A stretch of DNA of 64,000 nucleotides from a virus. Every line of letters begins with the position of its first letter. Positions within the stretch are counted from its first letter, which is position 1. The notes under the pieces were generated by a model. That model did not search any database, was not told the DNA's origin, and saw only the letters and a program-made list of their open reading frames with translations. The translations under genes were made by a program, and so were the position numbers. Where the stretch lies: positions 62,256 through 126,255 of the IMG/VR virus record IMGVR_UViG_3300047409_000574; one strand, written 5' to 3'. Below are positions 18,951 to 59,643 of the stretch, piece by piece.

Positions 18951-19877
18951 GTGGCTGACGAGCCGATGAAGCCGAAGGACGACATGACACCGCCGCCCGA
19001 GGCTGATGCGCCGACTGATGCGAAGCCAACCGACGCGAAGCCGAGCACGGTCTCCCCGGCGGGGATGACCGAGGCCGAGATTAGGGCCGCAGGCTTGGCT
19101 GTCGATGTTCCCTTTGAGAGTGGTAGCGCGACGCCGGAGCGGCTCAAGTATTCGAGCAACGCGGGGCAGGAGTGGACGCCACCGGCGGGCTGGCCGCCGG
19201 AGACCGGTGCGGTGCCGGATGAGGGGAGCGCGGCGGCGGTTGATCCGCCAGCACCGCCGGGGCCGGAGGTGCCGCCGGAGACTTCGCCTGCGCCCGGCCC
19301 GCCGGTGCCGCCTGCGTCGTGAGCAACGCGCTCAACCTGACGTGTCTGCCGAACGACCAGCTACGCCGTCAGGGCGCTTCGATCCTTCGAGTCGTTGCGG
19401 AGGTTCGTGACTTCGTCGAGGGCGAGGATGTGCCGGAGTCGCTCGTGCGCGATCTAGTGGAGATGGAGCGGGCAGGTCGGTGGCTGGTCAACGCGACTTC
19501 GATCAACCTTACGCGCGGGATTCCGGCAGTCGGCCTGACGGTGCCGCCCGTCAAGTAGCGTGCCGACCTGTCGTGTGTGTCCGGCCGAAATAATCTGGGC
19601 CATCTCGGACAACGGGAGGCGCATGCCGATCGACGCGGTGCCAGCCTCTCACGGCACGATCCTGTTGAAGCATGAGGGTGGGCCGGGGGAGCCGCCGCGC
19701 GCCCATGTGGTGTCGGTGGAGGAGCGGGAGAAGCTGCTGGCGGAGCACCGTTACCGGGTGGAGCATCTGGGGCATGCGGATACGCCGTTCGTGCTGTTTG
19801 TGCCTCATCACTTGACTTGCGCGAAGGTTGCGGCGGTGCGGGCGGGGGCGTTGAAAGGCCAGGAGCCTTTGTTCTAG
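18951..19877 (+). other. Three hypothetical genes (18951-19322 Pro/Ala-rich, 19319-19558, 19560-19877 zinc-ribbon-like)
   Basis: Contiguous ORFs. The third has CRVC..IIW..GRRMPID..HHLTC. Confidence 0.6.
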
Positions 19878-19954
19878 CGAGAGCCATCATTGTTTGCTAC
19901 ACTGAGGGCGACCCGCCAGACCAGCGGGAAGTGTGTAGACCACGGAGGTAGCGA
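19876..19954 (+). promoter_or_regulatory. Promoter-hairpin-SD cassette, copy 1
   Basis: GCCATCATTGTTTGC-TACACT; stem CCCGC/GCGGG; loop CAGACCA; GTGTGTAGACC; GGAGGTAG; ATG at 19955. Confidence 0.85.
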
Positions 19955-22900
19955 ATGGCTCGGAGGGAATCGAACATCATGTCGGCCCAGGCGGCTCGCG
20001 CCCAGGCCAACCGGCTTGCTGCGCGCAACGCGCCGCATGCGCCGTGGGTGAAGTACGAGACGCTGCTCGGAATCGTCGATCGTGAGTGCGAGAAGCTCGG
20101 CCGCCGCTGGTACGGCGTCCCGAGCGCGTACGCGGCAATCAAGGAGATCGAGGCGGCCGACCCGGAGACGCGCAAGCTCGCCCGCCGGATGATGCTTGAC
20201 CGGCTCGACGCGTTCCCGTTGCGGAAGGAGGCGTAGTCATGGCTGCTGCGACGAAGGAAGAACTGCTCGCCGACGTGGACGTGACGAAGCTGCCGGTGCG
20301 GCGTGTCGCGCCGGAGATGCTGACCGATGAGCCGCTTGCGGAGATCGCGGTCGGCGACCTGGTCGTGATGCACTCGCGCAACGCGCTGCGTGTCGCGCAG
20401 GTGCTCACGGTGACGCCGAAGCGGGTGATGGTCGCCTACACGACCGAGGGCGCTTGGACGGCGGCGCGGAAGATCGCGGAGATGTATCTGACGCCCGGCT
20501 ATGTCGAGCGGCTCGTGGGGCAGGCGCGCAGGACGGCGGGAAGCAACTACGACTGGTTCGTCGCGCAGTCGAAGCCGGAGACGGCGAGCTACAACCCGAG
20601 CGAGGCGGACATGGCGCGCAATCGCGCACGGGTCGAGCGGGAGACGCGCGAGGAGCACATCGAGCGGACGGTTCGCGAGGCGCGCGAGGGTGCGGAGGCG
20701 AAGGTCGCCGAAGCGAAGCTGGGCTGCGAGCAGTACGTGACGGTGACGACGAAGTCGGTCAAGCGCTCCGACGTGTACGGGTTGAAGTCGTGAAGCGCAG
20801 GCCGGTGCCGCGCGAGTGGCGGGAGGATCATCACGACCTCACGTTGGACTCGCGGCGGCGATACGCGGGTCGTGATGGGTCGCGGCTCGCCAATCGTGCG
20901 GGTGGCGTTTGCTCGTGTGGGGAGCGCTTCGGTTTGAGGGCCGACCCGCCGCGCCACAACATGGACGGTGGCGACGTGCGCGAGGCGTACAACGATCACG
21001 TCGAGGCGGCCTACTACGCGGAAGCTGACGCGGCGGCGGCGCAGGCGAAGCGCCGGTACAAGATCGGTGTCGCGACGACCCACCACGATGTGGTCGAGGT
21101 CGAGGCAAGCACCGGCGATGAGGCGGTCGAGATTGCACGCGCGATGAACGCGCACGGCGAGGTGCCGCAGTCGCTTGGGATGACCGAGGTCACCTACCAC
21201 GTGCTTGAGCCGGTGCAGTCGTGATGCGCGCCGTGACGGTTGCGCTCGCCGCTCACCGCTATGGCGAGTTGGAGAAGGCGATCCAACGGGAGACCGACCC
21301 GGCGAGGCGCGCCGAGCTTGTACGTGACCTGAACCGCATCGACAGGATGAGACGGAGGGCGACATGAAGTACGGGGCTGAGCTTGAGGAGGAGATCGTCG
21401 TGTTCCTGGGGCATGACGCGTCGCCCGAGGAACCGTTGATGCTCGGCTCGATCCAGAGCTTCTTCGCCTGGCGGCCGAGCGAGTCTCTGGCGGTCGAGCA
21501 GGCGCTCACCCGCCTGGTCAAGAAGGGTCAGGTGGTCGAGACGCGTGACGAGAACAATCTGCGCTGCTATTACGTGGCGGTGCCGACTGCTGGGCTGAGG
21601 CGTTCGCTGGCGGACGCGAGCTACGTGCTCGACTGGTTGCGCGCTCGCGAGTCGCCCGAGAACATCATCGGGTTGCAGGAGCGGGTCGTGCGGACGCTCG
21701 GCGGCGAGGGGCAGGCCCGTGAGATCAGAGGGGCGGTGCCGTCGTGATCGTCGTTGCGATCACGAGCCGCGAGTACGACGTGGCGACCAAGGCGCTCGAC
21801 TCGTACAGCCCGGACGACGTTCGCGACCACGTGGCGCTCGCGAAGGTTCGCGTCAAGCTGGGCGACGCCAACGAGACCAAGAAGATTCGCTTCTCCAACA
21901 AGGAGGCAAATGTCTTGATGGATGCGCTCAACGAGTGCGACCCGTTCGACTCCGGCGAGGAGCAGACCGCCGGAGTTCTGAGCGAGAAGCTGACGGGCCG
22001 GGTGGCGTTGTGAGCGAGCTACATGATCCGTTCCACGATCGCGAGCGCTTTTCGGTTGTGCGCGAACCGAGTCAGACTCGGATGGTCTACGCCGTGATCG
22101 ACAAGCTGAACGGCAATCTTCGCTATTCGCGCCATCACTCATCCGTCGCAGCGCACAAGCAGGCGGATAGCTTGAACGAAGCGTATCGCGCGGAGCGGCG
22201 CGCATGAGCAAGCTGCTGACGAGGGGCGAGCAACTGGTCGGGCATCCGCTGATGGCGGAGCGGGTGGCCGGGGTGCCGCACTACGTTCCGGGCCAGCACC
22301 AGGTGGCGATCACCAGCCCGGCGGTGTTGCGCGAGATGGGCATTGACGACGGCGTGGAGCATCCGGCGGCGGAGATCACCTATGTCGATCAGATGGGCGA
22401 GGCGGTCATGGTGCTCGCGTCCAAGGATGACGACGGCTGGGAGCCGGTGATTGTGGGCCGGGCCGGGCATCAGGTGTTCCGGGGCTGGCGGGTGGTCGGC
22501 GTGGACGGGTTCGAGTTTGTGTTGAGCGAGAAGATGCTGGCGGCGCTGGAGCGCGCGGAGCAGGAGATGGCGACGTGACGCTCGGCGACTGGAACAGGGT
22601 GCGCGGTGCTCGCGCGTGGTTCTACGGTCTCCGGGTTAGGGACTCCTCGAAGTCGCCCAACGTACTCACGTTCGCGGTGCATCGCGAGGCTGACGGGGTG
22701 ACGCTTCGCGGCATCCGCGCGTCGGGTTACCGGACGACCACGCTCGCGCGCAAGATGAATGTGAGGGACTTGCCGGGCTATCAGTCGGCGGCGCTGGCGG
22801 CGATTCGCGAGTTCGAGGCGAACGAACGTGGCTAGGCGGGTCGGCCCGCGCGAGCGCCCGTGCTCGGATGGCGAGCTTGGGCATCCGATCGACCAGGTTT

Positions 22901-23046
22901 TCATCCACACCTGGCACGGCAACTACTCGGCGTTCAACGGCTACCGGTTCACGCCGTCGGACTACTCCGAACTCGGCTGTAGTCGGTGCGGTGTGTCGTG
23001 GCGGACGAACGCCGCCTACGTCGAGGAGTTGACGGCTCGTGTCTAG
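19955..23046 (+). other. Operon of small hypothetical genes (19955-20236, 20239-20793, 20790-21224, 21364-21747, 21744-22013, 22010-22207, 22204-22578, 22575-22835, 22828-23046)
   Basis: Coupled + strand ORFs downstream of cassette copy 1. Confidence 0.65.
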
Positions 23047-24049
23047 ACCTCGTGGGTTCGCACAATGGAACCCGAAGCCCGACACGCTGGCCGTCCTGGC
23101 GGATGTGGAGGGCGTGCTGGCGAGGTACTCCGAGTTCCTGCCGTTGACGGCCAGACAAATCTTCTACGCACTCGTTGGCACGACTGGCTACGACAAGACG
23201 GAGAAGGCGTATGCGCGGCTGTGCGAGTACCTGGTGCGCGCACGGCGGGCGCAGATGATTCCGTTCGAGTCTATCCGCGACGACGGCACGACCCACCACG
23301 ACTTCGTGAAGTACCTGGGCGTTTCCAACTTCTGGGAGCAGATGGTCGATCATGCCGACCACTACGTGCGCGACAAGATGGCCGACCAGCCGGTCTACGT
23401 CGAACTGTGGTGTGAGGCGGCAGGCATGGTGCCCCAGTTGGAGCGGGTCGCGAACCGCTACTCGATCCCGGTCTACTCGACGGGTGGGTTCTCGTCGGTG
23501 ACGGTGACCTACGAGATCGCGGAGCGCGCGCTGGCACGTGACCGGCCGACGGTGTTTCTGCACGCGGGGGACTACGACCCGTCGGGCGAGTCGATCTTCG
23601 ATTCGATGACGCGGGACTCGGTGGCGTTCCTGCGCAACCGGATGGTCTGGGAGGGCAAGAAGAAGGGCTGGCCGTCCGGGGTGATGGACGAGATTCAGAC
23701 CGGCAACGGCGGGCTGTTCGTCGGGGCGATCGGCGAGGCGATGCCGGAGGGCTACCCGGACTTGCGTCCGCGCCGGGTGGCGCTGACGGAGGAGCAGGTG
23801 GAGGAGCACGACCTGCCGACGGCTCCGGCGAAGCCGACCGATACGCGGTCGGCGAACTGGGTGGGCGAGACCTGTCAGTTGGAGGCGATGCCGCCGGATT
23901 TACTCGCGGAGGTGATCCAGGAGGCGATCCTCAGTGTGCTCGACCGCGACCGGCTGGAGGAGGTTTGGCTGGAGGAGAAGCGGGAGCGCCAGGTGGCGAA
24001 GGAGCAGATCGCTCGGCTGATCGAATCTGGCGACACTGAGGATGCGTAG
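23039..24049 (+). CDS. wHTH plus Toprim protein (Topo VI-A/DUF2399-like)
   Basis: LTARQIFYALV; VELWCEA; GGFSS; AGDYDPSG (DxD); RVALTEEQV; QLEAM. Confidence 0.8.
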   Translation: MSRPRGFAQWNPKPDTLAVLADVEGVLARYSEFLPLTARQIFYALVGTTGYDKTEKAYARLCEYLVRARRAQMIPFESIRDDGTTHHDFVKYLGVSNFWEQMVDHADHYVRDKMADQPVYVELWCEAAGMVPQLERVANRYSIPVYSTGGFSSVTVTYEIAERALARDRPTVFLHAGDYDPSGESIFDSMTRDSVAFLRNRMVWEGKKKGWPSGVMDEIQTGNGGLFVGAIGEAMPEGYPDLRPRRVALTEEQVEEHDLPTAPAKPTDTRSANWVGETCQLEAMPPDLLAEVIQEAILSVLDRDRLEEVWLEEKRERQVAKEQIARLIESGDTEDA

Positions 24050-24050: not shown

Positions 24051-24133
24051 GCCATCAGAGTTTGCTAGGACGTGCTACACTGAGGCCAGCCCGCAGACCA
24101 CGGGCGTGTGTAGTCAACTGAGAGAGGTAGAGC
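24051..24133 (+). promoter_or_regulatory. Promoter-hairpin-SD cassette, copy 2
   Basis: GCCATCAGAGTTTGC-N10-TACACT; stem GCCCG/CGGGC; loop CAGACCA; GTGTGTAG; GAGGTAG; ATG at 24134. Confidence 0.85.
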
Positions 24134-24832
24134 ATGACGAGCAACAAGCGCATCACCCGCTCCGCGACCCCGGCTCCTGGCGTGACTGTCGAGGTCGAGC
24201 GCGAGAGCATGGGCCAGGTGACCGAGTACGAGGTCTACGTGACCAACGCGAAGGGGCGTGTTCGCTGGGGCGGCGGCACCAAGCGCGAGGCCCAGCGCAT
24301 CTTCGACCGGACGGTCAAGAGGTTTGCGAAGGGGGTGGCGAAGTGAGCGGCGAGTTCTGCACCTGTCAGCAGGTGAGTAGGAACGTGTTTGACTGCCCGC
24401 TGCACGGCGAGCGGTTGCGCGCCGACTCGGTGCGCTACCAGGCCGAGCAGGAGTCGAAGCGGCAGGCGCGCGTCGAGCGTCGGGCGGACGACGCGGAGTA
24501 CGCGCGCGGTGTGGACGACACGCGCCGGGCGCAGGAGGCTGGCCCGGCGGGTAGCGCCGCACGCGAGCAGGCGTACCTGGAGATGGAGGCCCAGTGGGCG
24601 CGGGAGGGTCACGATGGCTGATCTGGAGATCACACGTGACCGCACCGGCGAGTTCATGGTCGTCCAGGTCGAGGGCGTCACTGACGCCGGTGTCGAGTTC
24701 GTGGACGGCTACTGCCCCGTAGGGGTGGAGTTCCAGGTGATCGACAGCGGCCGGATCATCGTCCCGGAGCAGACGGCCGAGGCGATCCAGATTCTTGCGC
24801 GCGAGCGCGGTCTCACAACGGAGGTGGTCTAG
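24134..24832 (+). other. Three small hypothetical genes (24134-24346, 24343-24621, 24614-24832)
   Basis: Coupled ORFs directly after cassette copy 2. Confidence 0.65.
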
Positions 24833-25798
24833 GTGGCGATCGAGCAGCGCAAACGCACGAAGTGCGGGGGGTGTGGTCGGCGTAGGTTCGTGACACGAAT
24901 GGACACTGGCGTGCTGTGCGATGGGTGTCGGCCGGATCAACTCTGGCGGGGCGTTACACCCGAGCAGCGATTCTGGGCAAACGTAAAGAAGCTCGAAGGT
25001 GTTGACGCGTGCTGGCTTTGGACACGAGGTAGTGACGCGCACGGCTTCGGCGTTCTGACGTTTGAGGGCAGACAAGAGGCTGTTCACCGCGTGTCGTGGC
25101 GACTTCACTTCGGCCCGATTCCCAAAGGAATGTGCGTGCTGCGTCGCTGCGAGCAGGCGCTCTGCGTCCGGCCGGATCATCTTTGGCTTGGTACGCGGCG
25201 CGACAAAGTGAACGACAAAACGAAGCGGGATCGCGTTAGGCGGATCGCGGCTGCGCCTGTCGGCATGGTCATTACCAAGAAGCCCAAGATGACAGACCTG
25301 GAGATTGCGTGGACGGCTGGGCTGTTCGAGGGCGAAGGATCGCTAATCGTTGTAGCGAAGCTCGATCCCTCCAGGCCATCGACCCAACTCTCATTGACGA
25401 GTACGGATCGCGATGTGATTGTGCGCTTCGCCGAGACCGTCGGAGCGGGCCGCGTGTATGGGCCGTATCAACCAGGTGCGGGCAAGTACGATCACTGGAA
25501 GCAGCAATATCTCTGGCGCGGTCATGGCTGGGCGCTGCTTCGCCGCCTGCGCGCTGAGTGGGGGCCGTATCTTGGTCGGAGACGACTCGCGCGATTCGAC
25601 GAGATCGCAGCGATGGAGCCGCCGCCCTACGTTCGGATCAATCGCCATCAGCGCAGGTTCACTGAGGACGATGTGCGCGACATGCGTTCGTCCTACGCGC
25701 GGGGCGAGACGCAGGTGGCAATCGGGAAGCGTTACGGGATCGCCCAGCCGCATGTCGGAGAGATTGTTCGTCTTGAAACCTACAAGGAGATCGCATGA
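24833..25798 (+). CDS. Zn-finger, degenerate HNH, LAGLIDADG and HTH fusion endonuclease
   Basis: CGGC..CDGC; RFWANV..CWLWT..VHRVSW..GPIP..CVLRRC..CVRPDHL; IAWTAGLFEGEG; TQVAIGKRYGIAQPHVGEI. Confidence 0.8.
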   Translation: MAIEQRKRTKCGGCGRRRFVTRMDTGVLCDGCRPDQLWRGVTPEQRFWANVKKLEGVDACWLWTRGSDAHGFGVLTFEGRQEAVHRVSWRLHFGPIPKGMCVLRRCEQALCVRPDHLWLGTRRDKVNDKTKRDRVRRIAAAPVGMVITKKPKMTDLEIAWTAGLFEGEGSLIVVAKLDPSRPSTQLSLTSTDRDVIVRFAETVGAGRVYGPYQPGAGKYDHWKQQYLWRGHGWALLRRLRAEWGPYLGRRRLARFDEIAAMEPPPYVRINRHQRRFTEDDVRDMRSSYARGETQVAIGKRYGIAQPHVGEIVRLETYKEIA

Positions 25799-26571
25799 GC
25801 GTTCAGACCAGAACGGACGCGAAGCGCGGATGTGGATTTCGCGTCAAAGGCGGCCTCTACATGGTCTCGGGGCAACTCTCGGAGCCGTGCCCGCTGCTCC
25901 CGGTCGAGACGAAGGTGTGTCCGACCTGCGGCGAGGGGATTCGTCCCGCGCGCGGGTTCACCTGGGTGGACGCGGCGAGCTTCATCCCGCCGGTCACGCA
26001 CGGCACGGCGGAGCACGACGCGGTCTGTCCGCTCTCGCCTGATCCGACACCGCGCGCGATCGTGAAGCTCGACCATGTCGAGCCGATCCGTTTCCAGGTG
26101 GTCGGGGTGCCGGGAACCTTCGCGACTGCGGACGAGGCGGCCCATGCGGCGGTCACCACTCCGCGTTCGCGGATGGGTGACCGGGTCGGCCTGATCTGGA
26201 TTGGGGCGGTGCACTATCCGACCCCGCAGTCGTTCATGCGGGAGGCGGCGGAGATGGGTGTGTCGCGTCGGATCACGGCGGTGCCCCGCGACTTCGTGAT
26301 CGGCGAGACCTGGATTCTGCTCGGGCATCGCCGGGCCGCGGAGCACGCATGCTCGGACTGCGGCGATCTGCCGAAGGGCGACCCGGAGTGTCCGGTCTGC
26401 GACGGCTCCGGCTACGAGAGTGTGCCGGGGATCATCACGGCGTTCCGGCCGACGGCCGTGGAATATGTAACGACCGGCCTTGAATCAGAGGAGGAGATTG
26501 AAGCCCTCGAAAAGCGCGGCATTACTCCGGTCGAAGTGATCCTCGACGAGACGCAGACCAGGCTTGTCTGA
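25795..26571 (+). CDS. Conserved-looking phage protein with Cys motifs
   Basis: RGCGFRVKGGLY, CPTCG, HYPTPQSFMREAAEMGVSRRI. Confidence 0.7.
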   Translation: MSVQTRTDAKRGCGFRVKGGLYMVSGQLSEPCPLLPVETKVCPTCGEGIRPARGFTWVDAASFIPPVTHGTAEHDAVCPLSPDPTPRAIVKLDHVEPIRFQVVGVPGTFATADEAAHAAVTTPRSRMGDRVGLIWIGAVHYPTPQSFMREAAEMGVSRRITAVPRDFVIGETWILLGHRRAAEHACSDCGDLPKGDPECPVCDGSGYESVPGIITAFRPTAVEYVTTGLESEEEIEALEKRGITPVEVILDETQTRLV

Positions 26572-27311
26572 TGTTCGACAAGAAGGCGTACATGCGTGAT
26601 TGGCGGGAGAAGAACAAGGAGCGCATCCGCGCCACACAGACGGCCTGGCGCAAGAATAACCCCGAGCGCGTGGCCGAGTATAGGCGTCGCGATCTGGAGC
26701 GAAACGCGGAGACCTATCGCCGCTATCGCGAGGAGCACGCGGAAGAACTGCGCGTACGTGCGCAGGCGAGATATGCGGCGAACGCCGATCGTCTACGCGC
26801 CGAGCGTCGCGCGTACTATCGTGAGCACAAGGACGCGAACCGGATTGCGCACGCGCTGTACGTCGCGGAGAATCGCGAGTGCGTGCAGGCGTACATGCGG
26901 GCTTGGCGTGTGACCGAGATCGGCCTCTTGTCGATCAGGAAGTCGCACTCTCGTCGCTCCGCGCGTGTCAACGGAGCCGCTGGTAGCTGGACTGTGGAGC
27001 AGTTCTACGCGCGCTGTGAGTTCTACGGTTGGCGCTGCTATCTCTGCGGCGATCCGCTTACTCTTAGCTCGTTGGTTGTTGAGCATCGGATTCCGCTCTC
27101 ACGCGGCGGAAGCAACTGGCCCGCGAATCTCGCACCATCGTGTCGGTCGTGCAACTCGCGCAAAGGGACGCTGACTGAGTTTGAATATCGCCTGCGACTG
27201 GTTGGCGTGGAGGTGACGCCGGGCGGTGGAACTGTTGAAGCGATCGACGTTCAGATCGCTCGGCTATGCAAGTTGCAAGACACGGCGATTCTTCTCGAAA
27301 GTCTGCGGTGA
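26571..27311 (+). CDS. HNH endonuclease with basic helical N-terminus
   Basis: CYLCG..VEHRIPLSRGGSNWPANLAPSCRSCNSRKG. Confidence 0.9.
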   Translation: MFDKKAYMRDWREKNKERIRATQTAWRKNNPERVAEYRRRDLERNAETYRRYREEHAEELRVRAQARYAANADRLRAERRAYYREHKDANRIAHALYVAENRECVQAYMRAWRVTEIGLLSIRKSHSRRSARVNGAAGSWTVEQFYARCEFYGWRCYLCGDPLTLSSLVVEHRIPLSRGGSNWPANLAPSCRSCNSRKGTLTEFEYRLRLVGVEVTPGGGTVEAIDVQIARLCKLQDTAILLESLR

Positions 27312-41162: not shown

Positions 41163-41218
41163 TTGCGAGCGCCATCAACGTTTGCTACAGTGGGCGGACA
41201 CCCGACCAGGAGGAACTC
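41163..41218 (+). promoter_or_regulatory. Partial cassette copy (promoter and SD, hairpin missing)
   Basis: TTGCGA-17 nt-TACAGT with GCCATCAACGTTTGC in the spacer; GACCAGGAGG before the ATG at 41219. Confidence 0.7.
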
Positions 41219-42576
41219 ATGGCGATTGCCGAGCACGACCAGAGTGCGGAGGCGAGTGCGGAGGCGGTGCCGGTCTGCGGACATGTCGCGTCCGGCAACG
41301 GGTTCGTGTACGTGTGTGACAAGCGGGCCGGGCACACCGGCTGGCACGAGCAGCGCATGCAGCTTCGAGATGGTGTCGAGCGCACGAACTGGGGCAGCGA
41401 TGGCCTGGCGATGCACGCGTCCGCCGACCGGTTCAAGCCGGGCTTCTGATGGCCCGTCTGTTCCCGATCGAGAAGCGCGTCGAGTTCTTCGAGGACGACC
41501 ACGAGCGGACGTGGGTCGGCACGATGTGGCGTCCCGCGAGTTCCGGGGAGGTGGATGCGCACCGGGCGTCGGCGGACGCCATGATGCGCGTCTCGACGGA
41601 CGGCTCGGCTCGTGCCGGTGTGACGACCCTGACCACCACGAGATGAGCGAATGGGGCTATGCGTGGGACGACTCGGGGGTGTGGAAGTGAGCGGCTTCGA
41701 CAAGTGGGTGCGCTGGCACGACGGGACGCTGCGCAACGAGTTGGGCAACATCGCGATCACACGGGTGCAGGAGCGCAAGCGCGACAAGCCGCGCTGGCGG
41801 GTCGATGGGTGGCGGAACGAGCGCGTGCCCGAGTTCCCGGATGATGTGGCAGAGGGCTGGAAGCGTGTTCAGTTCACGCTGGGCGAGTTTGACACGCTGC
41901 GGCGTGCGAAGTCTGCGGTCGAGATGCACTTCCGCTCTCGGGACGGCGGCAAGCCGCGCGGGACACGGTCGGACTGGAGGAAGGTCGAGCGGGAGCTTCG
42001 TGAGCGGATTGACCTGCTCGCCTACCAGGTGCGGGAGGGCTTCTGGGAGGACGTGCTCGTGGGGCACCGGCCGGAGTTCGGGGAGTTTGGCTGGGAGTTG
42101 TATGTCACCGAGAACGACATGGAGCTTGAGCTTCGCGATCTGGCGGAGAACTTGTTGAGCGTGGCCGAGTCCGGCCGGGCGCGCCGGTCTCTGGAGGCGA
42201 GGATCGCGAAGCTGGAGAGTGTGGAGGGTCGGACGCCGGAGGAGGCTGCGTTGTATCTGGCGAAGGCGGCGGAGCTTCGTGGGGCGGCGACGTGACGGTT
42301 TCGCGGAGGATGCGTGAGAGGCAGAGGAACGCGGCTCGCACCGCGCGCTACGAGCTACTCACGTCGATTCGTTACCGGCGCGAGCGCGGGACGACTCCGC
42401 GGGCGGAGGATGTGGAGTTTTTGCTGGCCCAGCACGACGGGTTGCGGGCGGCGTTGATCGAGGCGGAGTGGAAGCTGCGCGAGTCGAAGCCGCACCGTGA
42501 CACGTTGTTGCCGTGCAACTCGGAGTTCGTGATGGGTGTGGTCGCCGACGACATAGCGAAGGCGCTGGCGGGGTGA
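41219..42576 (+). other. Small hypothetical genes (41219-41449, 41449-41646, about 41687-42295, 42292-42576)
   Basis: Coupled ORFs after the partial cassette. Confidence 0.55.
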
Positions 42577-44321: not shown

Positions 44322-44324
44322 GGG

Positions 44325-44403
44325 AAGCAGAGTTTGCTAGGCCGTGCTACAGTGAGGGCGAACCCGGTAGACCGCCGGGTGTGTGTAGACCGGGAGGTAG
44401 TAG
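44325..44403 (+). promoter_or_regulatory. Promoter-hairpin-SD cassette, copy 3
   Basis: AAGCAGAGTTTGC-N10-TACAGT; stem ACCCGG/CCGGGT; loop TAGACCG; GTGTGTAGACC; GGAGGTAG; ATG at 44404. Confidence 0.85.
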
Positions 44404-51100: not shown

Positions 51101-54100
51101 CGGTCGGATCGTTGCGAAGCACAAGTCGTTCGCGGGCGCGCGGAAGAAGGCGCAGAAGTTGGGCGACGCGCAGCCGGGCGGGCGCGACGAGCAGGAAGCG
51201 AAGTGGCGCGAGATTCGCGGCGAGCAGCCGCGCAGTCCTGCGACGACGCGCTTGCAGTCGGATGCGATCGACCGGAGCCGTCGGGTGCACAACGCGAACG
51301 TCGCGAAGGACGAGGCTGCGGCGGGCAAGTGGCATGGACAGGATGTGTCGAGCGGCAAGCTCGTGCCGGTAGAGGAGATGCACCTCCTGTCGGATGAGCA
51401 GGTGCAGCAGTTGATCGACCGGGCGACCAATCCCAGGACGCAGCAGGCTCCGGCGGAGTGGGCGTCGGCGGTCGCGCGCGAGGCGAACAAGCGGAAGGCC
51501 AAGTTGCGGGAGGCGAGCTTCTCCTCTGGCGGGTTCGACACGAACTCGCCGGTGCAGCAGAAGTCCGGCGGGGTCAACGGCCTGAACGGTGGCGGCGCGA
51601 ACGGCGAGGCGCTGCCGGGCGGGCGCACGTCGGGCACCGATGACGTGTGGGGTGGCTCACGGGCGACGAGGCCGCCTGGTCTGCGCGAGTCACCGGCCGA
51701 CAGCTTCGCATCGTGCGCGACGTGCGTGCATCACAACGGGGCGCGGCTGTGCGCGCTCTACAGCGCCGGGACTGACCCGGACGATCTCTGCGACTCGTGG
51801 TTCACGCTGACGCCGGTCGAGGCGCGGACGACGGCGACGATGCTGCTGGCACGGTTCGACCGCGGCGAAGGCGGGCAGGTGGATGAGGCCGCGCGCGCCG
51901 ACCTGATCCGGGACGGGTGGGCACGGCTTGAGGAGAGCGTGCTTGACTTGCCCGAGACCGCGTCGGTGGCGCGCGGCATGCTCTCGCAGGGGGCCACGGT
52001 CGCCCAGGCGCGCGTCGAGGCGACGCAGGTGGTCGCCCGGCGCGTGCTTGACCGGGAGCGCCGTGGTTTGTTCGGCCATGATCTGGAGGAGGCCGCCGGG
52101 GCGAAGAAGGTGAAGTGCCCGAAGTGCGACACGGTGCAGGCGGCGACGAACAAGGCGTGCGTGAAGTGCGGGAAACCGATGCAGGGGATGGGCGGCAAGC
52201 TGAACGAGTCGCTGCTCAACGCGGCCGGTGGTGTGCTCGACGACTGGCTGGCCGAGAGCACGCTGACGGCGGAGGCACGGAAGAAGCTGCCGAAGGACGC
52301 GTTCGCTGTCCCGCCGGACAAGTACCCGATCCACGATGAGGCGCATGCGCGGAACGCGCTCGCGCGGGTGGCGCAGCATGGTTCGCCGAAGGAGAAGGCG
52401 ATGGTTCGGCGGAAGGTCAAGCAGCGGCATCCGAAGATCGTGCAGGAGGCGCTCGACCTGATCGCGTGCGAGGTCTGCGCGCTCGACGAGGATTCGCAAG
52501 GGCTGGCCTGGTCGTTGTTGGAGGCGGCTGACTCGATGGTCAAGGCGACGGTGCACGAGCCGGTCGGCAAGCCGGGCGGGAAGGGGCTGTGGGGCCACAA
52601 GGGGATGCAGCTTCCGGCGTACATCCAGCACATCGCGAACGATCTGCGTGAGAAGCGCGGCATGACTACATCGCGGGCGGTCGCGACGGCTATCGCGGCG
52701 GTGAAGCGGTGGGCGGTCGGTGGCGGCAAGGTTGATGCGACTACGCACGCGGCGGCGATCAAGGCCGTCGCGGAATGGGAGGCGCTCAAGGCCGCATCGC
52801 ATGCGCATCTCAAGGAGTCGGGTGTGTTGAGCGAGGCGGGCATGGTGATCCACTTCGACCCGCATCTGCATCCGCGTTCGCGCAAGGGCGAGTTCATCGA
52901 CGTGCTGGGCAGGCTGATGCAGGGCCATCGCGGCGGCGAGGTGACCTTGCCGCACGGGGTGAGTGTGCGCAAGCAGGGCGGGCTGCTGGTGGTGCGCGAC
53001 GGGGGCGGCCCGGCGGGGGTGTATCGCAACCCGGCCAAGGCGGCGGCGAAGGCGCTCAAGCAGACGGGTATCCCGTCGCCGAAGCACACGAGCGCGGACA
53101 TGGGGATTCGCACGCCCCGGTTCGCGATCGCGTTCGACAAGGGCGATCCGAGCACGCCGGGCTGGACGAAAGTGGAGGCGGCGACGGGCAGGTTCCCGGC
53201 GCATCACCGGACGTTGCCGAACGGCCGCTCGGAGATGTTGACGAAGCTGCCGGGGGAGGATCACTGGCGGCACATCGGCATGACCCGGACGGGGAACGTG
53301 GATGCGTTGCGGGCGGTGCCGGACGCGGAGGCGCGGCAGATGATCGCGGGGGAGCAGGGCGGTCATGTGGTGCATCTCCAGTCGGTGGGCTTGCATCCGG
53401 CGAAGCCCGCGTCGGAGTTCGTGCCGGGCGATCATGTGGTCTACAACTTTGGTGTCACGGGCGAGGTGACGAAGGTGGAGCCGAAGGGCAACTCGGTGGC
53501 GCTTACGACGCGCAGCGCGGACGGGAGGGAGTTCACGTCTACGAAGCGCGGCTCGACGTTGTTGGGCCATTCGCTGCGTTCGTACAACGGGGCGGAGAAG
53601 GGCGGCGGCGAGTTCCGCGTGTCGTGGTATGACGGCCGTCCGCCGGAGGGCCACACGTGGGGGGTCGGCGACAAGGCGTTCTGGAACGGCCGGAACGTGG
53701 AGATCATCAGCAAGCTCGGGACGGTTTCGGGTGCGGAGCAGAACTACGGGATCAAGTTCGAGGACGGGCATGTGAACTGGGCGAAGCACAGCGAGCTTTC
53801 GCTGCCGTACACGGGCGACAAATCAGGTGGCCGGGGCGGCTCGTGGGGCGACACGGAGGGCGGCCAGGACGCGACGCGTGGCAGGGAGGCTCCGATCCGC
53901 TCGGGCGCGCAGCCGATTCCTGCGGCGACGTTGAGGGGCGGCGGCCTGGATGAGATTCGCCACACGGTCGTCTATCGCAAGCAGGACGGCTCGTACAGGG
54001 AGACGGGCGTCAGCGCGCGGGACTCGAATCACGCGCGCGAGCTTGCGGCCCGCATCATCCCGGAGAACGCCACGATCACCCAGGCGTTCCCGGAGAGCGA

Positions 54101-55283
54101 CTCGACCAAGTCGGTCGGCGAGATGACCGACGTGGAGCTTCGGACGGCGCTTGGCACGATCAGCGACAGGCTGGTGATGCATGCGCAGAGCGGCGATCGG
54201 CAGGGCGCGAATGCGGCGACGATTGTCAGCGGGCAGATCACGCAGGAGATGGAGCGCAGGCGCGGCGACGAGGCGCAGGCGCAGGCGCAGGCGCTTGCGA
54301 ATCGGATGGCGTGGGGCGAGAAGGGCGGCGGCAGCTACGCGCAGCAGGCCGAGACCGAGATGTGGGATGCGATTGCCGGGCAGGACGCGAGGCCGGTGGT
54401 CGCTTCGCCGCCGCTTCCCGATGCAAGCGAGTTGAAGCACATGTCGGACGCTCAGATCACGGACTTGGTCGAGCGAGTGATCCCGCAGGCTCGTGGCGCT
54501 GTCCACGATCAGAGCGTGCCGGGCGAGTTCCGCCAGAAGCTCGCGGCCGAGGCGAACAAGCGCAACACGCGTCGCTACCAGGGCGGCGGCGGCGACAACG
54601 TGGAGGCGCAAGGGACGATGAAGCCGACGCTGACCTCTGGGGGGTTCAGTCAGAACGCTCCGGGCTACGGCTCGCGCGGCTACGAGACGCCGAAGGGTCG
54701 GGTGACGTTGTCTCTCAACTCGATCCCGAAGGAGTGGATGATCGAGCACGGCTACGCCGTCAAGACCGAGCACAAGGCGACGGCTGCGTGGGCCGGTCGT
54801 CAGCCGAGCAAGGCGTACACCTCGATCGACTACAAGACGGGTCTCGACGTGGAGCGCGTCTGGATGCACTACCTCACCGGCGCGGTGCCGAAGAACCCAC
54901 TGGAGGGGACGAACAAGGCGGCGCAGTTCCGCTACACGGGCAAGGGCGGCACGAAGGCGACGCGTGCGGCGCTGGCGCGCAGGCTGACTGAGGCTTCGCT
55001 TCCAGCGCTGGCGGTTGTGCTCGGGCTGACCGAGTACCGCCAGCATGCGATCGTCGGACGGCTCGATCGGATCGAGGACACGGCGGTGACGATGGTGCGG
55101 CTGCCGGTGGCGGAGTTCATCGTCGAGGCCCGCGCCAGCGACAACGATCTGGTGGCGGCGACGGTCGAGGTGCTGCGCGGTCGGCTGGCGGAGGTGGCCC
55201 CGGACGCTGACCGGCGGCTCCAGGAGGCGGCCCCTGGGGATGAGAGGAAGCTCTACGCGACGATTTGCGGGGCGCTCGCGTAG
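48120..55283 (+). CDS. Giant 2387-aa head-associated polyprotein: 4 HPR tags, papain/transglutaminase-like domain, 2 peptidoglycan-binding domains, zinc ribbon, head-accessory-like and SH3-like domains
   Basis: Tags at 48642, 49920, 50793 and 52869. GACQEVT..EHTI..YIDFTASQY (C-H-D). LQARL..DGQFG..TEQAVKAFQ and LQQTL..DGRFG..DGVVG. ARKKLPKDAFAVP..YPIHDEAHARNALAR. More than 15 [LIV]xE[AS] sites. Confidence 0.8.
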   Translation: MSDDLTLHPLLACFVGRLQEAGLDRTGALAVACTSLARWEKSGKGDAGERLPERARALVKRALYEFEGLHGFHDGLLEAVRAVGDTPLTPEAAREVVEAATTHAALALGLLETVRDRDEVVQGRAMETAAKLLNLEFTGTAQDEVSRMRQALDQALCADKVLIEGIGHRFEELLHPRGRGGEWIKGLQKPGDKGGGDLPPEAGKFYSAHVQGAQARLKILRPHPRRPGWWEAENVTTGGRVRVTPDMLTPESGDKGGGESGKLDRGAPVRLRGGPKKWSVFEDHGNGYVTISHGQAFDQVKKKVLRRDLTPWGGDKGGGGVRKQITRINLVPGGEGDKGDPGRQRTGDPKIDKLIEEFLRTPMGDWTSDDNTYEALRDPERSHGACQEVTDHFVEFAKARGFKAYSTNTDMEEMGYTPQIKPFGEVGFDDHGEMQYGFYPEHTIATIVVDDPAYKYGREFYIDFTASQYGYKEHPKVTESLDEETYWRLCSDVVALRTVMLFEADDREQRKLRANAAALVERMRYLAPGEFDAVPRVTDEMLAESVEVTFEPVLNILFEAGQALAAKPPPVSSDPVTRAHQVTGTKPGETGVPNADFERVHPRSRGGVFAKKGDGLGAQASNPTVKQLQARLSAMGYRVVQDGQFGTVTEQAVKAFQKDHGLPESGHADARTAAAMRDPGAGVHNRQTAGTAAGTAAGKKGSSSASSSSTGVSLGKAGMLRRGDGMGPGAKPSNEVAVLQQTLDSMGYEVGVGGADGRFGEDTQAAIEMIQRRYGLRVDGVVGSQTADLIHRLMTARAKQGRQDGQLSVDEMPSKGVTPNKVPKGTSGRRAAKKKAAPKLPKQVTVAAAPAATGGQSLSAGSRLQHAASTAEEEQDMEDVALVEVTFDPSKHARGRGGKFAEMLGHAAEAWKSGKAYLDNSGNYRLKSEGGNSRRGQVAPWNKAVKSAFPKHDDFARAIDPAAAKSHDEAMARLNRFEVKSVGGEHHVIDNQDGGRIVAKHKSFAGARKKAQKLGDAQPGGRDEQEAKWREIRGEQPRSPATTRLQSDAIDRSRRVHNANVAKDEAAAGKWHGQDVSSGKLVPVEEMHLLSDEQVQQLIDRATNPRTQQAPAEWASAVAREANKRKAKLREASFSSGGFDTNSPVQQKSGGVNGLNGGGANGEALPGGRTSGTDDVWGGSRATRPPGLRESPADSFASCATCVHHNGARLCALYSAGTDPDDLCDSWFTLTPVEARTTATMLLARFDRGEGGQVDEAARADLIRDGWARLEESVLDLPETASVARGMLSQGATVAQARVEATQVVARRVLDRERRGLFGHDLEEAAGAKKVKCPKCDTVQAATNKACVKCGKPMQGMGGKLNESLLNAAGGVLDDWLAESTLTAEARKKLPKDAFAVPPDKYPIHDEAHARNALARVAQHGSPKEKAMVRRKVKQRHPKIVQEALDLIACEVCALDEDSQGLAWSLLEAADSMVKATVHEPVGKPGGKGLWGHKGMQLPAYIQHIANDLREKRGMTTSRAVATAIAAVKRWAVGGGKVDATTHAAAIKAVAEWEALKAASHAHLKESGVLSEAGMVIHFDPHLHPRSRKGEFIDVLGRLMQGHRGGEVTLPHGVSVRKQGGLLVVRDGGGPAGVYRNPAKAAAKALKQTGIPSPKHTSADMGIRTPRFAIAFDKGDPSTPGWTKVEAATGRFPAHHRTLPNGRSEMLTKLPGEDHWRHIGMTRTGNVDALRAVPDAEARQMIAGEQGGHVVHLQSVGLHPAKPASEFVPGDHVVYNFGVTGEVTKVEPKGNSVALTTRSADGREFTSTKRGSTLLGHSLRSYNGAEKGGGEFRVSWYDGRPPEGHTWGVGDKAFWNGRNVEIISKLGTVSGAEQNYGIKFEDGHVNWAKHSELSLPYTGDKSGGRGGSWGDTEGGQDATRGREAPIRSGAQPIPAATLRGGGLDEIRHTVVYRKQDGSYRETGVSARDSNHARELAARIIPENATITQAFPESDSTKSVGEMTDVELRTALGTISDRLVMHAQSGDRQGANAATIVSGQITQEMERRRGDEAQAQAQALANRMAWGEKGGGSYAQQAETEMWDAIAGQDARPVVASPPLPDASELKHMSDAQITDLVERVIPQARGAVHDQSVPGEFRQKLAAEANKRNTRRYQGGGGDNVEAQGTMKPTLTSGGFSQNAPGYGSRGYETPKGRVTLSLNSIPKEWMIEHGYAVKTEHKATAAWAGRQPSKAYTSIDYKTGLDVERVWMHYLTGAVPKNPLEGTNKAAQFRYTGKGGTKATRAALARRLTEASLPALAVVLGLTEYRQHAIVGRLDRIEDTAVTMVRLPVAEFIVEARASDNDLVAATVEVLRGRLAEVAPDADRRLQEAAPGDERKLYATICGALA

Positions 55284-55287
55284 TGGT

Positions 55288-55350
55288 CTAGCTCGGGCCG
55301 GGTGCGTTCTGGGGACTAGAGACCTCCTGGGTTAGCCCGGCCCGAGCTAG
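55288..55350 (+). terminator. Long inverted repeat after the giant gene
   Basis: Perfect 15-bp arms CTAGCTCGGGCCGGG (55288-55302) and CCCGGCCCGAGCTAG (55336-55350). Confidence 0.6.
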
Positions 55351-55356
55351 TGAAGC

Positions 55357-55434
55357 AAGCAGAGTTTCCTTCGAGGTGCTACACTTCGGGCGAGGGGATC
55401 GACCATCCCCCGTGTGTAGACCAGGAGGTAGCAG
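55357..55434 (+). promoter_or_regulatory. Promoter-hairpin-SD cassette, copy 4
   Basis: AAGCAGAGTTTCC-N10-TACACT; stem GGGGA/TCCCC; loop TCGACCA; GTGTGTAGACC; GGAGGTAG; ATG at 55435. Confidence 0.85.
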
Positions 55435-56241
55435 ATGGCGTTCTTCAAGATCAGGGTTGAGCTTCTCGACGCGGATGGCCGTGTCGTCGAGACCGATTGG
55501 GCAAACGGCAACACGGATCGCACCGTCAAGGCTGCGGCCGAAGCTCTCGGCAACCAGATGCAGAGCGCGCACGATGACACGCATCCCGTCACGACCGTGC
55601 GCCTTGGTCGCAGGGTGAAGGGCTAGTCATGCCGACACTCTGGGTGACCTGGGGCGGCTCGAAGGTGGCGCATGCCGCCGATCGGGCGGTCAAGCTGGTG
55701 GACGTTCGTTCGGGCAGCTTCCCGCTCGCGTGTGGCAGGTTCGCACCGGACGGCTGGGACAAGAATCTGCGCGAGGACGTGGGCAACTACAAGCCTCGCT
55801 GCAAGCGCTGCGTGAAGGCGGTGGCGTCAGGTGGTCACTGAGCAGGTCAAGCGGGTGTCGGCTGCGCTGCGTGCGGTTGGCTTCAAGCGTGGGGAGTTCT
55901 CGTGCCGGGCGGAGCGCAAGCACAAGCGCGATCGGAGCAACGGCGGTCGGCGCTACATCGAGTTCGGCCCGGCGTGCGCAACGTTCCACTACAACAGCCG
56001 CGACCCCGAGCGGACGTTGGAGCACCGGGCGCTGGCGGCGGCCCCGGCGCTGGTCGAGTTGGGCATGGTTGTCCAGGTGTTCACGAGGGGCGGCGTGCTG
56101 GAGTTCGTGACGGTGCGCGAGCCGGACTACCGCGAGACACCGACGGTGTACGAGCGCGACCTGGCGCTCCCGTGGGACGACCCCGAAGCCACCAAAGTTT
56201 GCTACACTGAGGGCGAGAGGCAGACCACCTCTCGTGTGTAG
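55435..56241 (+). other. Three small hypothetical genes (55435-55626, 55629-55841, 55831-56241)
   Basis: Coupled ORFs after cassette copy 4. The last ORF ends inside cassette copy 5. Confidence 0.6.
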
Positions 56242-56261
56242 ACCGATCAGGAGGTAGACCA
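56188..56261 (+). promoter_or_regulatory. Promoter-hairpin-SD cassette, copy 5
   Basis: GCCACCAAAGTTTGC-TACACT; stem CGAGAGG/CCTCTCG; loop CAGACCA; GTGTGTAGACC; GGAGGTAG; ATG at 56262. Confidence 0.85.
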
Positions 56262-56603
56262 ATGTGGGCATCAGCGCAAGAGGCGGCAGAGAGATTCCTC
56301 GCCGAGACGTGTGAGGCCAAGCCCGCCGACAAGGACGACATTCGCTTCGAGCACGGTGTGTTCGCCGACGGCATGGAGGAGACACCGTTCTGGCTGCACC
56401 TGATCGACGACACCGGCACGATCGTGGAGCGCCACGTGTTCGCGACTGAGGCCGAAGTCTGGAGCCTGATCGAGTCGTTCCGTTACGCGCAGGCCCGGCG
56501 GGAGGAGGCGGCCCGGCTGGGTGTGCATCCACTGGAGATCGAGTTCGCGCCGTTCGGCCCGGCCTGGCTGGCGGAGCAGGAAGATCGCAGGAGGGGGTTC
56601 TGA
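56262..56603 (+). CDS. Hypothetical protein
   Basis: First gene after cassette copy 5; acidic, high GC3. Confidence 0.65.
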   Translation: MWASAQEAAERFLAETCEAKPADKDDIRFEHGVFADGMEETPFWLHLIDDTGTIVERHVFATEAEVWSLIESFRYAQARREEAARLGVHPLEIEFAPFGPAWLAEQEDRRRGF

Positions 56604-58932: not shown

Positions 58933-58964
58933 GGGCGGCCCCGGCGAACCAGCCGGGGCCGTCC
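58933..58964 (+). terminator. Hairpin terminator-like element
   Basis: 13-bp stem GGGCGGCCCCGGC/GCCGGGGCCGTCC followed by GTGCGTTT. Confidence 0.6.
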
Positions 58965-59186: not shown

Positions 59187-59501
59187 ATGGGAGAGATCAC
59201 TGTCGTCGATACCGAGCCGAACCTGGTTGGCACGATCGGCTGGGTCGATGCGGAGGGCAACGCCACCACGGTCGAATCCGCCGAGGTCACCTCGTCCGAC
59301 GAGGCGGTCGCGGTCGCGACGCTCGACGCCGACAACGCCACGGTCACGTTCGAGGTCGGCGCACCGGGCGTGACGCTGATCGAGGCGATCGGCACCAACG
59401 CGGATGGCACCCAGACCAGTCCTGTCCAGGGCACGATCACGGTTCAGCCCGGCGATGCCGCCATCGGGAGCATTGAGTTCTCGACGGCTCCCGCCGCCTA
59501 A
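59187..59501 (+). CDS. Acidic beta-rich (Ig-like) protein
   Basis: AAAGGGAA before the ATG; DAEGN..VTSSDEAVAVA..GVTLIEA pattern. Confidence 0.6.
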   Translation: MGEITVVDTEPNLVGTIGWVDAEGNATTVESAEVTSSDEAVAVATLDADNATVTFEVGAPGVTLIEAIGTNADGTQTSPVQGTITVQPGDAAIGSIEFSTAPAA

Positions 59502-59514
59502 GCTCGCAGGCGAG

Positions 59515-59554
59515 AAGTGGGCGGCGGGCCAGCAGGCAGGCTCGTCGCCCACTT
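59515..59554 (+). terminator. Hairpin terminator-like element
   Basis: 16-bp stem with GU pairs AAGTGGGCGGCGGGCC/GGCTCGTCGCCCACTT directly before cassette copy 6. Confidence 0.6.
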
Positions 59555-59558
59555 TACC

Positions 59559-59643
59559 AGCGAGAGCCATCAGAGTTTGCTAGGTCGTGCTACACTGGGA
59601 GCACCGGTAGACCGCCGGAGTGTGTAGACCCAGGAGGTAGGCG
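59559..59643 (+). promoter_or_regulatory. Promoter-hairpin-SD cassette, copy 6
   Basis: AGCGAGAGCCATCAGAGTTTGC-N10-TACACT; stem CCGG/CCGG; loop TAGACCG; GTGTGTAGACC; GGAGGTAG; ATG at 59644. Confidence 0.85.

Follow-up and report, generated by a model that had tools for sequence, protein, structure and literature searches.

A repeated promoter, hairpin and Shine-Dalgarno cassette with a covarying stem in a large uncultured phage

The subject of this report is a small repeated element in the genome of a virus deposited as IMG/VR record IMGVR_UViG_3300047409_000574. The DNA under study, referred to throughout as the window, is 64,000 nucleotides in length and constitutes the last 64 kb (positions 62,256 to 126,255) of the 126,255-bp record. 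Six times on its + strand the same parts follow one another in fixed order: a box, then a promoter element of the extended -10 type, a small hairpin whose 7-nt loop is of the type YAGACCR, the linear element GTGTGTAG, a Shine-Dalgarno sequence, and an ATG. The stems differ in sequence and nevertheless pair, which indicates that the hairpin is a real structure, with its stem selected for pairing and its loop for sequence. The reading put forward here, on which we are evenly divided, is that the six copies would represent a modular expression cassette combining a promoter for the host RNA polymerase, a stabilizing and translation-promoting leader, and a loop that would be read by a dedicated factor.

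Repeated start-associated motifs are widespread in actinobacterial phages, and their function has stood unexplained since 2011 (PMC3203893, PMC7302621). The cassette is an unusually clear case in that selection appears to act on nothing but pairing in the stem and nothing but sequence in the loop. The element also keeps a set distance to a promoter which relatives of the phage have in common, and thus the roles of structure and of sequence can be separated. The description would provide an initial model of promoter and leader for a large group of uncultured phages of ~105-135 kb, known from soil metagenomes and from genomes assigned to Solirubrobacterales, Baekduia, and other Actinomycetes. 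Should the hairpin serve simply as a 5' stabilizer, this would be ordinary biology in a new host group.

Six copies of the cassette

The six copies are present exactly as they had been read in a preliminary description of the DNA, and the whole record contains six, all on the + strand. The pattern TGCTACAST-N15-35-GTGTAG is found six times on the + strand of the window, as compared to an expectation of 0.00 from 100 shuffles, and the counts for the full record are six forward and zero reverse, with controls at 0/0. The element GTGTGTAG occurs seven times in the window, where 0.54 occurrences would be expected; six of these belong to the cassettes, and the seventh lies on the - strand at 2408. 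Upstream of TGCTACAST is a box, GCCAYCAnnGTTTGC, which had been overlooked previously and which is weakly dyad-symmetric. In the short form of the cassette, represented by copies 1 and 5, no gap separates the box from the -10 element, whereas the long form (copies 2, 3, 4, and 6) carries a 10-nt insert that repeats TGCTA.

Unless labeled as genome positions, the coordinates given here and below are those of the window. All six cassettes are on the + strand. Cassette 1, of the short form, extends from 19883 to 19957, with the box at 19883-19894, the extended -10 element TGCTACACT at 19895-19903, the spacer GAGGGCGA, the stem at 19912-19916/19924-19928, the loop CAGACCA at 19917-19923, GTGTGTAG at 19931-19938, GAGGTAG at 19945-19951, and the ATG at 19955. 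Cassette 2 (24051-24136) is of the long form and has its -10 element at 24073-24081, its stem at 24089-24093/24101-24105 around the loop CAGACCA (24094-24100), GTGTGTAG at 24106-24113 followed by TC instead of ACC, GAGGTAG at 24124-24130, and the ATG at 24134. In cassette 3 (44323-44406, long form) the -10 element is TGCTACAGT at 44345-44353, and it is followed by the stem at 44362-44367/44375-44380, the loop TAGACCG at 44368-44374, GTGTGTAG at 44381-44388, GAGGTAG at 44394-44400, and the ATG at 44404. Cassette 4 (55355-55437), likewise long, displays the box variant TTTCCTTC, a -10 element at 55377-55385, a stem at 55394-55398/55406-55410 with the loop TCGACCA (55399-55405), GTGTGTAG at 55412-55419, GAGGTAG at 55425-55431, and an ATG at 55435. 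The short cassette 5 (56188-56264) is formed by the -10 element at 56200-56208, the stem at 56214-56220/56228-56234, the loop CAGACCA at 56221-56227, GTGTGTAG at 56234-56241, GAGGTAG at 56251-56257, and the ATG at 56262; the TAG within its GTGTGTAG is the stop codon of the preceding open reading frame (ORF), 55831-56241. Finally, cassette 6 (59566-59646, long form) has its -10 element at 59588-59596, the stem at 59604-59607/59615-59618, the loop TAGACCG at 59608-59614, GTGTGTAG at 59620-59627, GAGGTAG at 59634-59640, and the ATG at 59644. The homology between copies stops at the ATG, and the shared length is only ~75-85 bp.

The stems CCCGC/GCGGG, GCCCG/CGGGC, ACCCGG/CCGGGT, GGGGA/TCCCC, CGAGAGG/CCTCTCG, and CCGG/CCGG, together with the loops CAGACCA (three copies), TAGACCG (two), and TCGACCA (one), stand as originally listed. 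So does the second AGACC that follows GTGT in five of the six copies, copy 2 reading GTAGTC. The distance from the -10 element to the stem, initially given as 6-8 nt, is in fact 5-8 nt. An outer inverted repeat, CTACAC/GTGTAG, had also been described. Its arms are indeed 26-30 nt apart, but the left arm of copy 3 is CTACAG, a 5/6 match that is uncompensated, and the outer repeat is without support from covariation.

A scan of IMG/VR for the -10 element followed by GTGTGTAG returned 66 loci, each a single chance match in an unrelated context. The combination of GTGTGTAG and GAGGTAG was found at at least 115 loci, of which the 80 listed are single matches.

A hairpin with a covarying stem

The compensatory change in the stem that had been reported earlier is borne out by a gap-free alignment of the six copies over 21 columns, in which 29 of 30 cells pair and all five pairs have changed on both sides. 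The observed covariation score is attained in none of 500 shuffles, and controls in which the partners were slid are 33-53% paired. RNAalifold finds the same hairpin on an independent alignment. The association of loop and stem is equally specific. On the + strand of the genome there are 167 matches to [CT][AC]GACC[AG], and exactly six of them, namely those of the six cassettes, sit between arms that pair perfectly over 4 bp or more. The same is true of one of 267 matches on the - strand, and 200 block shuffles yielded 0.47 such cases on average and never more than 4.

As had been surmised, the hairpin matches no Rfam family, there being 0 hits in the window at the gathering score. With permissive filters, the five cassette loci searched yielded two chance-level matches (E 0.15 and 0.85), one of which, to CsrC, touches the first bases of the cassette 2 upstream box. 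The suggestion that a covariance model be built from the six copies was partly successful: the model finds all six at 22-26 bits, with the next match in the genome at 16.4 bits, but it returns no credible match in the relatives of the phage introduced below. Indeed, the best scores in 523 kb of their DNA were 19.6, 19.3, and 17.7 bits, none in a cassette context.

The hairpin does not have the form of an intrinsic terminator, for the stems are followed by GTGTGTAG and not by a T run, and none of the six was called in a terminator scan. Two further pairings were considered and set aside. A mini-helix between the ACC of GTAGACC and the GGU of the Shine-Dalgarno sequence would amount to 3 bp only and is weakly supported. 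A paired small RNA or tRNA was also dropped; no tRNA genes are present in the phage.

Promoter elements and hairpin-less copies

The -10 element is of the extended type, TGn joined to TAnnnT, and reads TGCTACACT in five copies and TGCTACAGT in one. In all six the stem begins 5-8 nt past the last T of this element, the discriminator that separates the two is G-rich, and a purine is located at approximately +7 in each copy. On the basis of this geometry the hairpin would form the 5' end of the mRNA.

The promoter also occurs without the hairpin. At 41171-41221 on the + strand, a copy of the short form that had likewise escaped notice consists of GCCATCAACGTTTGCTACAGT, followed by CCCGACC, AGGAGG, and an ATG at 41219, with neither hairpin nor GTGTGTAG. 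Beyond the window there are four more sites with the promoter box, at genome positions 36698, 40517, 41691, and 45378. Three of these, at 40517 (before a gene for a Ku-like protein), 41691, and 45378, are hairpin-less, which together with the copy in the window gives four such sites. The site at genome 45378 retains a CGGGC 3' arm, GTGTGTAG, and GGAGGTAG, and thus looks like a copy-2-type cassette from which the 5' arm and the loop are missing. At genome 36698 the box is followed by TTTGCTA and then by divergent sequence. The modules of the cassette are therefore separable.

With respect to the polymerase, searches of the phage proteins detected no sigma region 2, and the giant proteins of 5277 and 2387 residues showed no match to a virion polymerase family. 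There was no match to PF00940 for a T7-type RNA polymerase either, a weak result given that the control also matched nowhere. A sigma-54-type reading of the upstream box was rejected by eye, the GG of the consensus being absent, and a survey of repeated 10-mers for other promoter classes gave only G+C-rich coding words.

These observations bear on a hairpin-type DNA promoter, one of the possibilities raised at the outset, here taken to be of the N4 kind and served by a virion-borne polymerase, and on a recombination module that shuffles genes in the manner of the PeSL elements. The giant and apparently virion-associated proteins of 5277 and 2387 residues speak for the former, but a polymerase domain was found neither in them nor elsewhere among the phage proteins, and the single-subunit enzyme that defines the N4 system was thus not detected; moreover, the hairpin is situated downstream of a good -10 element and not upstream of the start. 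As for recombination, the elements are repeated and modular, they are flanked by genes without family assignments, and the existence of variants with and without the insert or the hairpin hints that copies have undergone exchange or deletion among themselves. The stretch shared by the copies is nonetheless short, their stems differ, no close relative was found in which insertions or deletions at cassettes might be seen, and the shuffling of genes would leave selection for pairing unexplained. Neither an N4-like hairpin promoter nor a role in recombination alone is likely, and taken together we give them very little weight.

The Shine-Dalgarno leader

In all six copies GGAGGTAG is positioned 3-4 nt before the ATG. 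The GACC that precedes it is a feature of the genome at large: GACC-N0-6-GGAGG is found 30 times on the + strand and never on the - strand. At genes not headed by a cassette, a gap of 1-8 nt separates (Y)CCGACC from the GGAGG(TAG) and start codon that come after it, as for example at genome 22780, 37394, 40591, 41727, and 69012 and at window 41219. The 3' ends of the 16S ribosomal RNAs from two metagenome-assembled genomes that carry related terminases, which served as stand-ins for the actual host of the phage, read ...GGATCACCTCCTTTCTAGGG. Whereas GGAGGT is fully complementary to this tail, GACC is not, and an extended Shine-Dalgarno role for GACC was thus ruled out with respect to these two stand-ins. 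Note that the YAGACCR loop itself includes the (C)GACC motif, the loop of copy 4 being TCGACCA.

Similar architecture in distant relatives

A blastn search with 7.5 kb of the phage gave 0 matches to named phages, and the terminases closest to its own among these, from Bacillus phages, are 27% identical. The terminase used as a single query retrieved no relatives from IMG/VR; a terminase alignment used as the query retrieved relatives at 40-48% identity on virus contigs of 105-135 kb. Five of these, G001-G005, were compared at the DNA level, including the loci L217 (from G005), L224, and L225 (from G002). Terminase homologues at 55-68% identity exist, the best identity among the relatives whose DNA was compared being 48%. 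Further terminase relatives come from genome bins assigned to Solirubrobacterales, Baekduia, and Actinomycetes, and one homologue is labeled Gaiellaceae.

The motif TGCTACANT occurs in four of the relatives with forward/reverse counts of 5/0, 7/0, 0/10, and 0/3, as compared to 0-2 for controls with the pattern written backward. There is no excess in the fifth, G005 (1/0 versus 7/4 in the controls). The -10 element is thus strand-specific, being confined to the coding strand, in four of the five relatives searched. At locus L225 of G002, TTGACT is located ~17 nt upstream at four of six sites, and a TTGACA -35 element is present at three of ten sites in G003. The combination of a -35 hexamer with an extended -10 element in these two genomes reads as ordinary housekeeping-sigma architecture. 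GACC lies 1-2 nt ahead of GGAGG at many start codons of the relatives, and the (Y)CCGACC motif recurs ~10 times per 20 kb in L217, L224, and L225.

In G005 and G004, a box peculiar to each directly precedes a -10 element of the TGCTAnnnT type, and a hairpin follows 4-8 nt downstream. The stems of these hairpins vary and the loops are short and GNRA-like. One copy in G004 has GCGAGC/GCTCGC where the others have GCGGG/CCCGC. In G005 the hairpin is observed at six of ten sites, and three of the six contain G.U pairs on the coding strand, which on the other strand would be A.C; these pairs therefore argue for RNA. Taken together, the shared -10 element, the -35 elements of the relatives, and the hairpins of the relatives favor a promoter for the host RNA polymerase and a 5' hairpin that acts at the level of RNA. 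From these comparisons, the succession of promoter, 5' hairpin, GACC, Shine-Dalgarno sequence, and ATG is a family-wide architecture, with only the YAGACCR loop and GTGTGTAG special to the present phage.

The relatives also contain symmetric sequences. A perfect palindrome, GCTACAC-T-GTGTAGC, spans the -10 element at three sites in G001 and G003; in G003, positions equivalent to the outer repeat change without covarying. The box of G005 (at L217 positions 11824, 12225, and 16663, for example) takes the forms GCTCACGATGTG and GCTCACATCGTG, and its core CACGATGTG is present upstream of the -10 element in both orientations, the reverse complement being CACATCGTG. Such a two-way core is as would be expected for a symmetric DNA-binding site. 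The element in the present phage may be a site on DNA, at which a phage or host protein would bind CTACAC/GTGTAG over the -10 element, the direct repeats of YAGACC (spaced by 17-19 bp), or both. Repression or activation of the six promoters would be the outcome, and the variable palindrome might be extruded. The palindromes and the two-way core of the relatives are consistent with this, as are the weak dyad symmetry of the upstream box and the fact that the six stems, all of them Watson-Crick, would pair as DNA too. The spacing of the half-sites, however, is variable (26-30 bp), the CTACAG of copy 3 is uncompensated and the equivalent positions in G003 behave likewise, and a stem of 4-7 bp with a 7-nt loop would make a poor cruciform. 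Additionally, recognition of double-stranded DNA would be expected to preserve the sequence of the stem and not its pairing alone, and the G.U pairs in the hairpins of the relatives indicate RNA. A DNA-level site is accordingly viewed as improbable.

Proposed function

In the expression cassette that we favor, the upstream box GCCAYCAnnGTTTGC, specific to the lineage and either followed by the 10-nt insert or lacking it, would precede TGCTACAST (TGnTAnnnT), which would be read by the host RNA polymerase carrying its housekeeping sigma factor, a canonical -35 element being unnecessary. Transcription would start at the purine ~7 nt past the -10 element, following the G-rich discriminator. The hairpin of 4-7 bp with its 7-nt YAGACCR loop would then be a 5'-terminal stem-loop of the mRNA having 0-2 unpaired nucleotides at its 5' end, and it would be followed by single-stranded GUGUGUAG(ACC) and by the strong Shine-Dalgarno sequence GGAGGUAG, 3-4 nt ahead of the AUG. 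The stem-loop would guard the transcript against 5'-end-dependent decay, and the uniform leader would ensure that the first gene is translated at a uniformly high level. Whereas the stems drift, the loop is conserved, as is the second AGACC beside the Shine-Dalgarno sequence, and the most likely reason is that both are read by a trans-acting factor, which would treat the six units alike.

Stem-loops at the 5' terminus are known to stabilize bacterial mRNAs, and a 5' overhang of 0-2 nt, as predicted for the cassette, is the geometry that protects transcript 5' ends. Of the three functions originally entertained, the 5'-terminal mRNA hairpin fits best, given the spacing of 5-8 nt in six of six copies and the hairpins of the relatives, with G.U pairs in three of six. 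In mycobacteria, structure lying outside of the region that binds the ribosome is linked to a longer mRNA half-life, at least in the portion of the literature available.

Hairpins that lie close to a promoter and are bound by a regulator include boxB of the lambda nut sites, with N, and the TAR element of human immunodeficiency virus, with Tat. The cassette resembles them in having a small hairpin right after the (predicted) start, a conserved loop on a free stem, and an adjoining linear element. It differs from nut and TAR in having six sites and not two, in that the hairpin precedes the linear box, and in its dissimilar 7-nt loop, and it is known from sequence alone. It is possible, although we put this forward only tentatively, that the YAGACCR loop is one half of an RNA operator, with the repeated (U)AGACC near the Shine-Dalgarno sequence as the other half, and that a dedicated regulator would read it in the manner of nut or TAR. 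The regulator could be encoded by the phage or delivered with the giant virion protein. The operator would mark six transcription units, including that of the capsid genes, for joint control of read-through, stability, or translation, and it would be a system grafted onto the family-wide leader of GACC and Shine-Dalgarno sequence in a phage of uncultured actinobacteria.

Several observations weigh against the expression cassette as proposed. A consensus scan found no -35 hexamer 16-19 nt upstream of the -10 element at the cassettes, although such a hexamer is optional for the extended -10 class, and a simple sigma-70 scan called no promoter at them. The box sits at two positions relative to the -10 element, 10 bp apart, a feature that a plain host promoter leaves unexplained. 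The folding energies of the hairpins are ordinary for their G+C content (z-scores of -0.4 to -2.3 versus shuffles), and the structural case therefore rests on the covariation; in copy 6, the minimum-energy fold lacks the hairpin altogether. The six stems contain no G.U pairs and by themselves do not distinguish RNA from DNA. A role as a stabilizer alone leaves the conserved loop unexplained, and the relatives have other loops or no hairpin. The first ORFs after the six cassettes (61-113 residues) gave 0 family matches, and no candidate RNA-binding factor was identified. The start site is a prediction, for the sequencing runs that carry phage sequence comprise one DNA soil metagenome, which may be its source, and no RNA run. 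Finally, the gene calls derive from our own ORF caller, which is based on GC3 (G+C content at third codon positions) and is crude.

Possible transcription and processing signals around the cassettes

Two of the cassettes are preceded by separate, stronger stem-loops. A 16-bp stem-loop at 55288-55350 on the + strand, terminator-like but without a T run, is found between the stop codon of the gene for the 2387-residue protein (55283) and cassette 4, and the 91-nt stretch that contains it (55270-55360) has a folding energy of -46.9 kcal/mol. Cassette 6 is separated from the ORF ahead of it, which stops at 59501, by a terminator-like stem-loop of 17 bp (59514-59555, + strand). The small hairpin of the cassette is therefore not required as a terminator, and the sites of cassettes 4 and 6 look like the order terminator, promoter, leader. 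Cassettes 2, 3, and 5, on the other hand, are within 12 nt of the preceding ORF or overlap it, with no terminator nearby.

The terminator-like stem-loops invite consideration of a processive antitermination or attenuation signal resembling lambda nut or TAR, in which the nascent hairpin and GUGUGUAGACC would load a phage factor onto the polymerase and thereby allow read-through of the stem-loops between operons. Such a signal might look like what is seen directly after the six promoters, where a small hairpin, conserved in its loop but free in its stem, is succeeded by a linear element that does not vary, and the genes are all on one strand in long arrays. Yet at cassettes 2, 3, and 5 there is no nearby terminator to overcome, and relatives with other loops or with no hairpin retain the promoter and the leader. 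No N-, Q-, or other antiterminator-like protein turned up, although no dedicated search was made. We regard antitermination as unlikely.

The positions of cassettes 2, 3, and 5, inside gene arrays and without a terminator upstream, would suit an RNA processing site in read-through transcripts, the cutting of which would free downstream mRNAs with a short leader before the Shine-Dalgarno sequence. By one route, CUACAC/GUGUAG and the inner stem would form an interrupted helix of 10-13 bp to be cut by a double-strand-specific RNase. When folding is carried out from TGCTACA on, the outer and inner stems do form in copies 2 and 5. The outer stem is uncompensated in copy 3, however, and it coincides with the -10 element, which by itself accounts for its conservation. 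By the other route, an enzyme of the RNase E type would cut single-stranded GA/CC, and the family-wide placement of GACC 1-2 nt before GGAGG is in line with this. According to the available part of the literature, mycobacterial RNase E cleaves single-stranded RNA at RN|CNU, and its specificity around the cut is weak, which would leave the conserved heptamer loop unexplained. A processing site is quite unlikely.

Comparison with start-associated sequences and PeSL elements

The closest known systems appear to be the start-associated sequences (SAS) of the Cluster K mycobacteriophages (PMC3203893) and the similar motifs of the Microbacterium Cluster EF phages (PMC7302621), with the PeSL elements of T4-like phages (PMC4122927) being related more loosely. 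The cassette has the logic of both systems in common with them but lacks the sequence and layout features by which either is defined.

Like the SAS, the cassette is found in an actinobacterial phage (the host here being predicted), and it presents a conserved motif with a Shine-Dalgarno core a few nucleotides before the start codon, within the 3-7 nt that characterize an SAS. Both occur in a single orientation, both strongly prefer ATG (six of six here), and both are followed by unrelated genes; a subset of the SAS has an inverted repeat immediately upstream. The sequences are unrelated, however, and the 13-bp consensus of Cluster K or Cluster EF is absent from the six cassettes. The cassette, furthermore, is fused to a recognizable promoter. 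In the elements termed ESAS, conserved 17-bp imperfect inverted-repeat arms surround a spacer that varies from 4 to 13 bp. The cassette has the reverse pattern, with arms of 4-7 bp that are free in sequence and a loop fixed at 7 nt. The SAS are restricted to non-structural genes, whereas cassette 6 heads capsid genes.

The preliminary description had likened the element to PeSLs. As a composite, repeated cassette the likeness holds loosely: both PeSL/PmSL elements and the cassette are multi-copy arrangements of promoter, stem-loop, Shine-Dalgarno sequence, and start codon, with varying stems, degraded half-copies, and small genes of no annotated function downstream. In the T4-like phages, the stem-loop is just upstream of the promoter and is taken to be a terminator, and the separate strong stem-loops ahead of copies 4 and 6 are comparable in that regard. 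The likeness does not extend to the covarying hairpin, which lies 5-8 nt downstream of the -10 element, or to the promoter, which is of the -35/N17/-10 type in PeSLs and of the extended -10 type without a -35 element in the cassettes.

Genome and gene context

The window has a G+C content of 65-69% and a positive GC skew throughout. All of the credible genes are on the + strand. Although the record is labeled linear, its first 122-135 nucleotides repeat its end (window 63868-64000) except for a 3-nt GAA difference, and the genome is probably closed or terminally redundant with a length of ~126.1 kb. By virtue of this repeat, the genome probably closes on itself, such that the capsid genes continue into the tail genes. 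The phage is a myovirus of ~126 kb and 67% G+C, and its host is probably a soil actinobacterium. Some of its proteins give helix-turn-helix-like matches. A gpA-type large terminase gene and a portal gene were identified. The genes for the tail sheath, tape measure, and baseplate occupy genome positions 1-22 kb on the + strand.

The cassettes had been thought to head early-type operons. This is not supported, given that no promoter is closer to the major capsid gene (62115-63443, + strand) on its upstream side than that of cassette 6, which heads the ORFs that reach it, with the record probably closing on itself into the tail genes. The operon of cassette 2 contains two HNH endonuclease genes (24833-25798 and 26571-27311), and just before this cassette is an ORF with a topoisomerase-family match (phrog_6247; 23039-24049).

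The giant ORF on the + strand at genome 50821-66654, the 3' end of which corresponds to window 1-4399, encodes the protein of 5277 residues. It matches phrog_15127 (a head protein family), LigT/2'-5' RNA ligase, ART-PolyVal, and phrog_2319, with an additional match to an intein splicing domain that falls below the Pfam cut-off, and it looks like a giant polyvalent virion protein. The 2387-residue protein (48120-55283) contains two peptidoglycan-binding domains and has endolysin-family matches at approximately residues 615-816.

Downstream of the tail genes are a RecT-like gene and an exonuclease gene (genome 22780-23793 and 24472-25794). The Ku-like gene, at genome 40591-41577, has a hairpin-less promoter copy of its own. 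The Ku-like, RecT-like, and exonuclease genes are thus combined in one phage.

Two other proteins encoded in the window are of note. One, of 659 residues (7652-9631), is a P-loop protein with PHROG matches that are terminase-, primase-, and helicase-loader-like, and it is interrupted by a LAGLIDADG domain; the insertion is probably an intein in a replication ATPase. The other, of 672 residues (16195-18213), displays a Zeta_toxin/AAA_33 kinase-like domain at residues 425-585.

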